This document shows, in pieces, positions 971-3,306 of a stretch of 21,250 bases of DNA. The first letter of the stretch is position 1. Every line of letters begins with the position of its first letter. A program made the translations under genes and the position numbers. Below the pieces are notes generated by a model that was not told the DNA's origin, made no database searches, and worked only from the letters and a program-made list of their open reading frames with translations. Source of the stretch: Patescibacteria group bacterium (GTDB lineage: Bacteria > Patescibacteriota > Minisyncoccia > Phycocordibacterales > UBA12445); the NCBI GenBank assembly GCA_022710205.1, contig JAKLHJ010000004.1, positions 1 to 21,250 of the forward strand, in the 5' to 3' direction.

Positions 971-1218
971 ATTGATTTAAAGACTACCAGATTAATCATA
1001 TTGTGGCAATCAAAAACTTGACATAATCACAAAATAGTGGATAATCAAACACGAAAAGAGGTCTTTGTAAAATTTACCCGCCTAAATTTTTTAAGCTATA
1101 CCCGTATCGCCAATAAGCAACGATCAAATAAAATTGATTTAACCTATTGACATAGGGTCTATAGGGGAAAATTTAAGCGGGCCAACAATAACGCAACAAC
1201 ACACGAAAGGGGTCCCAA

Positions 1219-2490
1219 ATGGATGCAATCATCTTGTTCCTGTTCTGTGTCGCCGTCTCAATTGGAATCTTCTATCTCCTGGGCATGGCTGTCCTCAAAA
1301 TGGCCGAAAAAGACATCTGCTTCACCAAAAACGTGAGCGGTTGGGTCAAAGCCGTTGTCGCCGGAGACGAAGTCGTGAAATGGATCGGTTGGATCCCCTG
1401 CTATCATGTCTCCTCTGAGACCGGAGAAATCCTGTCCCTCGACGGAAAGGACGTCGAGGTTCCCAAGGGCACCAGTGAAGAAGACGCCAAGAAAATGATC
1501 GAGAAAGAAAAAACCAGGATCATGGATATCGTCGAAAAAGATAGAGGTCTCCTGGACGATGTCTTGAAAAATTTTGGTATCTCTTTTGTCGGCCTGTGGC
1601 CTTATCGCAAGACCTACGAATACAAGTTCAAGTGGACCGAATGGGTGAAGAGAGCCAACGCGGCCAAATACGAACCCTGGCCCAGAGAAGACAAAACTAA
1701 GCATGTTAGGTTTAGGTTCCCCTATTTTATTGATATCACCGAAGCGGAAACCAAAGGCAAGGTGACGATTGACGTCACGTTGCTCGTCACCATCAGGATC
1801 CGCAACGCTTCCAAGGCCCTGTTTAAGTCGGGCGGAGAATGGCTCGCTAACGTGACTGCCGCGGTCCAGAGCGCAACGCGCGACTGGATCGGCAACAATA
1901 CGTTGGAAGACATTACCAAAACCCAACATGAATCGGGCGGTTCAGGCTTTGTCAGCTACGTTATGTCTCTTAATAGCTCTGAGAAGGGAAACAAGGGCCT
2001 TATCGAAACGCTTGGAGTAGAGATCGATATGGTCAACTTCCTTTCTTATGAGATTTCTGGGGACGGTAAAGAGCGTATCCAAAAGGCCACGACTGAACAG
2101 TATGTCGCAGAGCAAGAAGCTGCTGCCAAAAAGGCTCGCGCCGACGGAGACGCCGATGCGACTATTAAGCTGGCCGAAGCTGAAGCGAGAGCAATAGAAG
2201 TGAAGGGCGATGCCAAGGCCAAGGCAATGGAGAAGATGCTCAAGGCAGTCCACTCTCATCCCGGCGGAGTTCAGATCGAAATCGCAGACAGAATCGCGAA
2301 CGGGATCCAAAATTCCAAACTGACGACGCTCGTGGCGGGAGAAGGGGCACACCCCCTGCTCCAGATCATGGGCAATCAACTTCCTCAGGAACGCGAGCGC
2401 CCTAGAGATGATCACAGCAGGCAGGAACGACCGAACAAGAGAAGAGATCGGCAAACGCCGGAGGGAGAAAAGAATGAGAGCGATTCCTAA
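1219..2490 (+). CDS. SPFH/band-7 (stomatin/flotillin/prohibitin-like) membrane protein with an N-terminal transmembrane helix and an Ala/Glu/Lys-rich coiled-coil tail. The codon usage is high-GC and foreign to the rest of the window.
   Basis: 423-aa ORF. A GGGG(T) Shine-Dalgarno-like sequence sits 6-7 nt upstream of the ATG. The N-terminal hydrophobic helix is 'IILFLFCVAVSIGIFYLLGMAV'. The SPFH-like core is 'VTIDVTLLVTIRIRNASKALFKSGGEWLANVTAAVQSATRDWIGNNTLEDI'. An A/E/K-rich segment 'AEQEAAAKKARADGDADATIKLAEAEARAIEVKGDAKAKAMEKM' is typical of SPFH C-termini. The third-codon positions are G/C-biased, unlike neighbouring genes. The long antisense ORFs (1258-1929, 1942-2586) are high-GC artefacts. 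Confidence 0.7.
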   Translation: MDAIILFLFCVAVSIGIFYLLGMAVLKMAEKDICFTKNVSGWVKAVVAGDEVVKWIGWIPCYHVSSETGEILSLDGKDVEVPKGTSEEDAKKMIEKEKTRIMDIVEKDRGLLDDVLKNFGISFVGLWPYRKTYEYKFKWTEWVKRANAAKYEPWPREDKTKHVRFRFPYFIDITEAETKGKVTIDVTLLVTIRIRNASKALFKSGGEWLANVTAAVQSATRDWIGNNTLEDITKTQHESGGSGFVSYVMSLNSSEKGNKGLIETLGVEIDMVNFLSYEISGDGKERIQKATTEQYVAEQEAAAKKARADGDADATIKLAEAEARAIEVKGDAKAKAMEKMLKAVHSHPGGVQIEIADRIANGIQNSKLTTLVAGEGAHPLLQIMGNQLPQERERPRDDHSRQERPNKRRDRQTPEGEKNESDS

Positions 2491-3205
2491 GTGGATCTGG
2501 GCCATCGCGGCACTTCTCGTGCTTGCGATGGCCACTTGCCTGTACCTACTCCTGCAAGCGAGTTCTAGCCTTGTGGGTGGGTACACATCTTATCTGGTTT
2601 ACGGCGTCCTTCTAACGGTGGCCATTATCCTTATCCGGAAATATGCCCCCATTTGGTGGGCCGTCCTCGCGACTCCCCGTCCCCCTATCAAATGGGATTG
2701 GGTCAAGGAGTGGGCATGGTTCATAGCAAAAATCACCCTGCTCCTTGCTATCCTTTTCTACGGATACAAAAATTGGGGAGCCATATGGAGCAACACAAGC
2801 CCCATTGTCTCCCAGATCTCGTCATGTTTGGTGCCGGCAAAAAAGCCACGACCGCCAGAGGGCTGGGTCATGAGCTGGAAAGCCGCAAAGGGCGACAACG
2901 CAAGAGACCCGAATAAGACGGACGGCTCTTACCTCGTCACCATCACCATTCACACCGACGAAAGGCTCTGCTTTGTCTTGCACTATAAAGATTGGGGCCG
3001 AGCTCGAGTCGCCGAATTCTTCGGGGATCGAACTGGCGATCGAAGACAAAGGATCTATGTGGGCACTTGGTCTCAGGGGGAGGAAGGAGACAGAGATCGA
3101 GACTACGGAACGTGGAGGCTGAAAGAATACGGCGCCACTTCCTTCGCCGGGAAGGTATTAGATCATCGGGGTATCGAGTTTGACTCAACCCCCGAAGTGC
3201 GTTAA
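2474..3205 (+). CDS. Three-helix integral membrane protein with a ~120-aa soluble C-terminal domain. It is a partner gene of the SPFH protein and has an NfeD-like architecture (not sequence-verified).
   Basis: I chose the start at ATG 2474 rather than the track's 2408, because of the GGAGG motif at ~2460-2464. That start overlaps the SPFH stop by 17 nt, suggesting translational coupling. Three hydrophobic helices are present (IWAIAALLVLAMATCLYLLL, YLVYGVLLTVAIILI, WAWFIAKITLLLAILFYGY). It has the same high-GC codon usage as the SPFH gene. Confidence 0.55.
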   Translation: MRAIPKWIWAIAALLVLAMATCLYLLLQASSSLVGGYTSYLVYGVLLTVAIILIRKYAPIWWAVLATPRPPIKWDWVKEWAWFIAKITLLLAILFYGYKNWGAIWSNTSPIVSQISSCLVPAKKPRPPEGWVMSWKAAKGDNARDPNKTDGSYLVTITIHTDERLCFVLHYKDWGRARVAEFFGDRTGDRRQRIYVGTWSQGEEGDRDRDYGTWRLKEYGATSFAGKVLDHRGIEFDSTPEVR

Positions 3206-3228
3206 CTGTTACGGGTAAAAAACCAAAA

Positions 3229-3256
3229 CCCTCGGACATCGTCCGAGGGTTTTTTA
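3229..3256. terminator. Bidirectional intrinsic terminator: ccctcggac-atc-gtccgaggg flanked by an A-run (5') and a T-run (3').
   Basis: Perfect 9-bp stem at 3229-3237/3241-3249. 'ttttttatttttt' follows on the plus strand. 'ttttggtttttt' follows on the minus strand. It closes both the high-GC island (+) and the TrbC-like cluster (-). Confidence 0.7.
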
Positions 3257-3306
3257 TTTTTTATAAAACTTTCACATTCGGCGTTCTACATCCGAATGAA
3301 TAAGTT

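Follow-up and report, generated by a model that had tools for sequence, protein, structure and literature searches.

SPFH proteins form domes of 22–26 subunits (PMC12624060), and in the SPFH1, SPFH2 and SPFH5 operons they are accompanied by NfeD, whose short forms are 140–150 amino acids (aa) in length (PMC2636767). One such pair, QmcA–YbbJ, is described in PMC13086221, citing Tan et al. 2024, as a cage of 26 SPFH–NfeD heterodimers that protrudes into the cytoplasm. Here, we describe a gene pair in a 21,250-nucleotide (nt) stretch of DNA (the window) from a Patescibacteria group bacterium, in which gene A (1219–2490, plus strand) encodes a divergent SPFH/band-7 protein of 423 aa and gene B (2474–3205, plus strand) encodes a partner protein of 243 aa. 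The pair was compared with the SPFH–NfeD operons QmcA–YbbJ and YqiK–YqiJ of E. coli, FloT–YuaF/NfeD2 of B. subtilis and PH1511–PH1510 of Pyrococcus. With a probability of about 70%, we read it as a resident two-gene SPFH operon that is ancestral to one clade of Paceibacterota (Parcubacteria, of the candidate phyla radiation, CPR), that has a GC content at third codon positions (GC3) bound to the locus, and that is probably exchanged as a cassette within the clade. A preliminary description of the same DNA had taken the pair to be a recent acquisition from a high-GC donor, conceivably the host of an episymbiont.

Much about the locus is familiar. As in SPFH–NfeD operons, an SPFH/band-7 gene and a small membrane-protein gene make up a two-gene operon, and the tight A/B linkage is consistent with the 1:1 QmcA–YbbJ complexes described in PMC2636767 and PMC13086221. 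Moreover, gene B resembles NfeD in that roughly three hydrophobic helices at the N-terminus are followed by a soluble all-beta domain at the C-terminus. Unlike NfeD, however, it matches no NfeD model, and its family members measure 220–250 aa rather than 140–150 aa (PMC2636767). Its barrel is predicted to be extracytoplasmic, in contrast to the cytoplasmic QmcA–YbbJ cage (PMC13086221), and the gene order also differs from that of SPFH–NfeD operons in that the SPFH gene comes first. Gene A is itself very remote in sequence from stomatin, HflK–HflC, QmcA, prohibitin and flotillin (E values of 0.03–0.3 against SPFH chains of the PDB) and, unlike cage-forming SPFH proteins, carries a 40–66-aa insertion in its N-terminal core. 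What is new here is an SPFH partner unrelated to NfeD; the SPFH operon type itself is known. Gene B may thus work like an NfeD-type co-scaffold or client without belonging to the NfeD family.

Distribution and base composition of the pair

Relatives of the pair are few and closely confined. A word-indexed search of 5.8 billion proteins (E <= 1e-3) returned only four other proteins like that of gene A, all from Parcubacteria/Paceibacterota bins, and scans of GTDB genomes and JGI metagenomes added the L009 lineage alone (labels L001–L020 denote the relatives' contigs or lineages that were compared with the window). An exhaustive profile search with gene B across 1.84 billion representative proteins gave nine clusters at 50% and no others. 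The matches to A and B are Paceibacterota, Parcubacteria or Patescibacteria metagenome bins, or contigs with the same CPR gene context, and no relatives of the pair were found in IMG/VR or in phage and plasmid collections. The search for a high-GC donor taxon therefore led nowhere, since all homologues fall inside one narrow Paceibacterota/Parcubacteria clade.

Within that clade, the pair holds a fixed place. Seven further lineages are available with flanks (L006/7, L008, L009/10/14, L015, L017/18, L019 and L020), and two more, L012 and L013, carry the pair on short contigs; a gene B homologue directly follows the SPFH gene in all ten lineages, window included. Past the pair, every flanked lineage has the same convergent block of four or five genes resembling pilins of type IV secretion systems (T4SS), a solute-binding protein gene and a methyltransferase gene, next to which, where contigs stay collinear, come GyrA and a protein of the metallo-beta-lactamase (MBL) fold; GyrA is present in five lineages and as a partial copy in L020. 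On the other side, tRNA-Leu(TAG) lies directly upstream of the pair in six of eight lineages (the window, L006, L008, L009, L015 and L020). GyrA identities among the pair-carrying lineages range from 96% down to 60–66%.

These results are the decisive ones and speak against a recent acquisition from a high-GC donor or host, as the same pair sits in the same place in all seven of the other flanked lineages. The preliminary description had itself allowed that conserved synteny in relatives would argue against a foreign origin, and such synteny is what the relatives show. Nor did its suggestion of an empty site next to tRNA-Leu in sibling genomes hold up, as no site where the tRNA or upstream genes abut the pilin array was seen among the lineages with flanks. 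In addition, the called genes of L001 and of the window include no integrase or transposase family, and a search for a repeat of the tRNA end at the far border (~3200–3400) gave only 7-nt chance matches.

The composition of the pair is nonetheless exceptional. Against a whole-window GC content of 43.3%, gene A has a GC of 0.513 and a GC3 of 0.616, and gene B has values of 0.538 and 0.611; the remaining 18–20 window genes have a GC of 0.38–0.46 and a GC3 of 0.34–0.50 (mean 0.434–0.438, standard deviation 0.044), so that each gene of the pair stands at a GC3 z-score of ~4. Synonymous codons ending in G or C make up 59% in the pair versus 43% in the background (chi-square 57.6, p = 3e-14). When the pair was recoded with background codon usage, its GC fell to 0.466 from the observed 0.522, and over half of its GC excess is therefore synonymous. 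The preference for G/C-ending codons that had been noted by eye in both genes is thus borne out by per-gene GC3 and by codon counts, and the GC contents given at the time (mid-50s versus about 40%) were right in direction and slightly overstated in size, the actual figures being 51–54% versus 42–43%.

Strand asymmetry is a factor in any such comparison. The cumulative GC skew drops near-monotonically along the whole window, and at third positions C exceeds G in plus-strand genes while G exceeds C in minus-strand genes; this asymmetry must be controlled in codon comparisons at this locus. For example, a purely C-specific (NNY) codon shift, seen when the pair was compared with all genes, was gone once the comparison was made with co-oriented genes only. 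Relative to co-oriented genes, the pair is raised in both C-ending NNY and G-ending NNR codons, and strand asymmetry explains only part of its GC3 excess.

The same codon usage accounts for two long open reading frames (ORFs) antisense to gene A (1258–1929 and 1942–2586, minus strand), which are not genes. They share a codon register with gene A, and their length arises because TTA, CTA and TCA codons are rare there (1.05 versus 2.84 per 100 codons). Synonymous shuffles give equal or longer runs in 56% and 37% of cases, and neither ORF has a counterpart in the orthologues of L008, L009 and L012, which rules them out as true overlapping genes. The preliminary description had already called them spurious, and they are indeed by-products.

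The deviation is not peculiar to the window. In all eight lineages (window included), the GC3 of the pair is above that of its neighbours, by +0.05 to +0.25. The excess is greatest in L020 (A 0.64, B 0.66, neighbours 0.41), in the window (0.62, 0.61 and 0.44, in the same order) and in L015 (0.49, 0.51 and 0.32), with lower values in L006 (0.50, 0.48 and 0.40), L008 (0.51, 0.48 and 0.39), L009 (0.41, 0.34 and 0.30), L017 (0.42, 0.44 and 0.34) and L019 (0.39, 0.37 and 0.32). The compositional argument for a foreign island thus starts from a real deviation, but one that is present in eight of eight lineages and that consequently cannot date the pair's arrival in the window genome. Moreover, gene A identity between lineages is only 24–56%; at such distances synonymous sites are saturated and the signature of a one-off donor would be erased, so that the GC3 excess must be maintained or repeatedly renewed. 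The GC3 anomaly is a property of the locus and no marker of recent import. In L020, a called ORF of 205 aa beyond the tRNA-Leu (564–1181, minus strand; GC 0.56, GC3 0.59) has no Pfam match and a translation resembling an antisense artefact, and the GC-rich patch in that lineage thus reaches past the tRNA.

Gene products, operon and tRNA-Leu neighbourhood

Gene A was proposed to encode an SPFH protein, and this assignment is secure. Its product scores 26.1 bits against Pfam Band_7 (PF01145; cut-off 23.6), the match covering 1738–2142 (plus strand; residues 174–308, profile positions 50–174), and the SPFH alpha/beta core fold is confirmed in the predicted structure. Among orthologues, that of L017 reaches 44 bits with the full profile covered, and those of L015, L019 and L020 remain under the cut-off at 15–20 bits. 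The family profile matches HflC, QmcA and prohibitin weakly and PDB SPFH chains at the E values given above; no NCBIfam subfamily comes near its cut-off, and a PHROG search gave only weak matches of coiled-coil type. The structure model has an overall predicted local distance difference test (pLDDT) score of 49, its confident parts being the SPFH core and a few helices.

By hydropathy count, residues 3–26 of the gene A protein form a membrane helix at the N-terminus, and no K/R precedes it. The insertion that follows interrupts the SPFH core in its N-terminal part and had been estimated at ~100 aa; its presence is upheld, although alignment to the canonical SPFH orthologue of L017 shortens it to ~66 aa. 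Of these, 40–46 aa are common to close orthologues and 20–26 aa occur only in the window, as a predicted helical segment at 1468–1545 (plus strand; approximately residues 84–109). Residues 283–364 form long Ala/Glu/Lys-rich predicted helices, and the C-terminus has a conserved strand motif, SK[LI]TTLV-G-GA-PLLQI, followed by a charged tail. Weak positive-inside evidence would put the bulk of the protein in the cytoplasm.

The start of gene B is at 2474 and not at 2408, as the N-termini of the orthologues agree (M-K/R-x-I-P-K-W). Its membrane helices span residues 8–26, 36–54 and 80–98, with three helices in most family members and two in P0010 and P0014. The C-terminus is a conserved all-beta domain of ~110 aa (residues 131–239), predicted to form an 8-stranded up-and-down beta-barrel (2864–3190, plus strand); the model, built from three sequences, has a pLDDT of 62 overall and of 70–86 in the barrel. 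Homologues of gene B are 23–68% identical across lineages. In the family, the N-terminus and loop 2 are rich in K/R residues, which are scarce in loop 1 and past the last helix, and the positive-inside rule therefore places the C-terminal domain outside the cell. For both A and B, topology was assigned by a simple hydropathy and positive-inside count rather than a dedicated predictor.

An NfeD-like architecture without recognizable similarity had been ascribed to gene B, and this portrayal was accurate: three helices precede a soluble beta domain, and no sequence match was found in Pfam, NCBIfam, PADLOC, PHROG or the PDB. None of the twelve family members examined matches an NfeD model at E <= 5, and a family profile search of the PDB returned no NfeD chain at E <= 10. 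The predicted 8-stranded barrel is also at odds with the five-stranded oligonucleotide/oligosaccharide-binding (OB) fold of NfeD, and gene B as an NfeD protein is ruled out by sequence searches and predicted fold alike. The structural similarity of the barrel to other proteins is generic.

Upstream of gene A, a sigma-70-like promoter (TTGACA-16 nt-GATAAT, 11 of 12 positions; 1018–1045, plus strand) is likely to drive the operon with a 5′ leader of ~170 nt. It lies within a block of DNA (846–1045) that is 80% identical to L020 and conserved in L006 as well, and relatives have TTGACA-N16/17-GATAAT beside the tRNA. The Shine–Dalgarno sequence of gene B, GGAGGG (2460–2465, plus strand), falls within the 3′ end of gene A and is 9 nt away from the ATG at 2474; a Shine–Dalgarno sequence precedes B in all orthologous pairs. 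The two genes overlap by 17 nt in the window, as first described, by 8–17 nt in six lineages (window included), and are separated by a gap of 3–17 nt in L015, L017, L019 and L020; together with the Shine–Dalgarno sequences, these overlaps and short gaps make translational coupling plausible. Downstream, the operon and the convergent pilin genes share a bidirectional terminator (3225–3253), a hairpin that has a stem of 13 bp and T-runs on either strand, with equivalents after B in L006, L008, L009 and L013. The placement of the pair between tRNA-Leu(TAG) and a bidirectional terminator is thus correct in both elements.

The genes converging on this terminator are, in the window, five tandem paralogues of 79–133 aa (3307–5180, minus strand) matching the T4SS_pilin/TrbC-VirB2 families, followed by a solute-binding protein gene (5170–6477) and a methyltransferase gene (6503–7030). 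The pilin array is conserved in related lineages, where it likewise converges on the terminator of the SPFH operon. Its adjacency is conserved synteny with convergent transcription and no evidence of co-function.

The tRNA-Leu (anticodon TAG; 889–970, minus strand) was called by ARAGORN and scores 56.2 bits in Rfam. Genomic islands usually integrate at the 3′ side of a tRNA. Here, the 5′ end of the tRNA faces the operon, and the pair is on the 5′ side, opposite to the 3′ side. At 58 nt past the tRNA 3′ end, an inverted 14/14-nt copy of the T-arm and 3′ acceptor is found (817–830, plus strand), and such a copy also occurs in L008 (18/18), L006 and L009, on the tRNA side away from the operon. 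Modules resembling the T-arm (AGGACTCG, a 5-bp hairpin, the loop TTACA, then AGTA) recur 3′ of the tRNA, at 706–760 and 817–830 in the window and at 1181–1500 in L020; they lie on the side away from the operon and may be integration remnants or a small repeat family. The tRNA itself exists as two alleles differing in the D-loop and variable arm: the window and L008 (4497–4578) share one 82-nt sequence, and L006 (9770–9854) and L009 (191–275) share one of 85 nt. This distribution conflicts with the flank phylogeny, the GyrA proteins of L006 and L008 being 96% identical. In L009/L010, a segment of ~230 bp containing the tRNA is inverted. The alleles, this inversion, the inverted copy of the 3′ arm (common to all lineages compared) and the assembly ends described below are additional signs of recombination, grouped around the tRNA.

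Farther out, the non-coding DNA at 520–740 of the window (GC ~0.52) lies between a terminator at 489–513 and the tRNA; considered as a non-coding RNA, it gave no Rfam match at E <= 1 and a fold z-score of about -2 on either strand. Within it, a 59-bp core (640–698) is 93% identical to L009 83–141, with the surrounding DNA at 70–76%. Independent assemblies of the window and L009 lineages end within 558–676, pointing to a repeat or to a junction that varies between strains. An ORF at 522–734 has no Pfam match, a 72-aa ORF opposite the tRNA-Leu (803–1021, plus strand) is almost certainly spurious, and an ORF at 111–479 is the C-terminal end (PG_binding_1) of a 1145-aa protein beginning upstream of the window (L001 1834–5271). 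Genes upstream of the tRNA vary: L006/L008 have UvrC and trypsin-like proteases, L019 has MurA and L017 has GIY-YIG, and given this differing content the tRNA marks a synteny break.

Proposed assembly and exchange of the pair, and competing explanations

Drawing on what is known of the family, a mechanism can be proposed in which the long helices and the C-terminal strand of the gene A protein would drive its assembly into a ring or dome, fencing a patch of membrane. Proteins A and B, made from one mRNA with overlapping genes and a Shine–Dalgarno sequence of B's own, would probably be produced in matched amounts, and B, which occupies the operon slot of NfeD, would likely be held within the SPFH microdomain as a client or co-scaffold, where it may show a small, putatively ligand-binding barrel at the cell surface. 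The pair as a whole would behave as a recombination-prone cassette traded among clade members, its GC3 kept high by GC-biased gene conversion or by repeated replacement; we infer that one of these two processes maintains the excess.

Comparisons between lineages are consistent with such trading. In blastn alignments, similarity is kept in the tRNA block and in the block from the pilins to GyrA and is lost within the pair, which has the lowest conservation of all segments whichever two lineages are compared. For example, the window and L009 share 63–80% identity in the pilins, 73% in the solute-binding protein and 81% in the methyltransferase, versus 48% in A and 29% in B; the window and L006 share 54% in the solute-binding protein and 71% in the methyltransferase, with A at 56% and B at 41%. 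In other comparisons, A tracks the solute-binding protein, as in L006 versus L008 (A 85%, solute-binding protein 84%) and L015 versus L019 (56% and 57%). Rate acceleration in the window lineage alone was rejected as the source of the break between the window and L009, the window's gene A being nearer to that of L006 (56%) than those of L009 (51%) and L020 (41%) are. Allelic exchange of the pair among clade members is thus plausible, and cassette replacement by double crossover in the conserved flanks would be the simplest reading of these identities. Exchange within the clade, whether or not biased gene conversion takes part in it, is the account that we tentatively prefer.

Several points weigh against this reading. 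The GyrA C-termini of the window, L020 and L006/8 are about equally close (87–91%), so that exchange may have run in either direction and the flanks may have moved instead of the pair. Plain rapid divergence would account for these comparisons as well as cassette exchange does. No GC-rich donor lineage was found among the carriers, and gene conversion stands as a candidate process. Function and assembly are deduced from family membership, the gene A model is poor overall (pLDDT 49), that of gene B was built on three sequences (pLDDT 62), and the topologies of both come from a hydropathy and positive-inside count. If those topologies hold, with A cytoplasmic and the barrel of B outward, the soluble parts of the two proteins could not touch, and A–B contact, unlike that of NfeD, would need the membrane helices or the basic loop 2 of B.

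Import of the two genes as an island into a site beside tRNA-Leu, from a high-GC donor that may have been the host of this episymbiont, would account for the GC3 of 0.61–0.62 versus 0.44 (z ~4) in the window, and the adjacent tRNA, the fragments of its 3′ arm and the assembly breaks close by suggest an unstable neighbourhood. Indeed, tRNA-linked islands resemble the locus in the composition shift beside a tRNA, in the tRNA-end fragments nearby and in the break in gene order upstream of the tRNA. The resemblance ends there, as the locus has no integrase, att repeat or flanking direct repeat, the pair sits 5′ of the tRNA, and it is present, and deviating in composition, in all relatives found, at the same position even where GyrA is 60–66% identical. 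With homologues confined to the same CPR clade, a GC3 excess that is clade-wide and no empty site seen, we regard such an import as very improbable. A nearer possibility, tentative but deserving of attention, is that the pair is native and that the window copy (with that of L013) recombined in from a GC-richer member of the clade, leaving the excess as an un-ameliorated donor signal. The flanks of the window are nearest to L009 both upstream (93% at 640–698, 76% at 759–977) and downstream (70–76% in DNA; 63–81% in the pilins, solute-binding protein and methyltransferase), yet inside the pair L009 (A 48%, B 29%) is no closer than L006 (56% and 41%). The occurrence of the two tRNA-Leu alleles disagrees with the flank phylogeny, L020 has a similarly strong excess, and an excess varying from +0.05 to +0.25 would be expected of replacements of differing age. 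Such a swap lacks a GC-rich background among the known carriers, whose background GC3 is 0.30–0.44; GyrA and the MBL-fold protein, moreover, place the window nearest L006/L008, so that the flanks may be the exchanged part, and plain rapid evolution would also make the pair the least conserved segment everywhere.

Codon selection, with no transfer or recombination at all, could conceivably raise GC3 if the SPFH scaffold and its partner were very highly expressed. An excess conserved throughout the clade is what selection predicts, ATC, TTC, TAC and AAC are favoured over their T- or A-ending synonyms in gene A of all lineages, and SPFH cages use dozens of subunits per complex (PMC12624060). However, genes for which high expression would be expected do not share the bias: GC3 is 0.46 in DnaK (ATC 0.27) and 0.48 in GrpE of the window, 0.30 in MreB of L019 and 0.40 in L33 of L017, these four genes having served as the check. 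G-ending NNR codons, furthermore, rise alongside C-ending NNY codons, as in a general GC shift and not a tRNA-matched optimization, and selection of this kind appears unlikely. Least credible of all, together with the foreign island, is a Cap15/2TM-beta-like membrane-disrupting effector in gene B, a type that joins membrane helices to a minimal nucleotide-binding beta-barrel, which would make the pair an anti-phage abortive-infection module. The barrel matches Cap15 no more closely than it matches designed barrels, outer-membrane proteins, avidins or lipocalins (10% identity), and gene B differs from the 2TM-beta effectors of CBASS and Panoptes in lacking sequence similarity and an associated nucleotide cyclase, in having three helices rather than two, and in its core-genome context. 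The surrounding genes include no cGAS/DncV-like nucleotidyltransferase (CD-NTase), mCpol or other maker of a signal, a barrel predicted to be outside the cell would be unable to sense a cytoplasmic nucleotide, and the fixed core-genome position in all lineages is unlike that of typical defence islands. A defence-system identity was likewise rejected for the pair, with no PADLOC hit and no phage, plasmid or viral relatives.

Returning to the resident, exchanged operon, a bolder extension of it can be imagined, which we put forward only as a long shot. Here, the locus would be a clade-wide recombination hot spot holding a fast-diversifying surface cassette whose deep allelic versions are traded between related episymbiotic Paceibacterota, with the high GC3 as the footprint of GC-biased gene conversion, the barrel as a host-recognition or phage-exposed determinant under diversifying selection, and gene B as a partner class replacing NfeD. 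In such an arrangement, a cytoplasmic SPFH cage would hold the membrane protein in place, and its small ligand-binding beta-barrel would be exposed on the outer side of the cell.

Significance for CPR membrane biology and genome composition

The pair also carries a caution for genome analysis: a GC and GC3 deviation beside a tRNA resembled a textbook island, yet the locus is conserved and native. A locus-specific compositional bias that lasts across lineages whose proteins are down to 25–55% identity is unusual, and should biased gene conversion underlie the GC3 excess, the locus would offer a rare and clean bacterial example of it. Finally, SPFH proteins organize membranes universally, and their bacterial partners are known almost only as NfeD, whereas here that slot is held by an unrelated, apparently outward-facing barrel protein, and it is held in a clade of ultra-small CPR bacteria whose membrane biology and contact with hosts are very poorly known.

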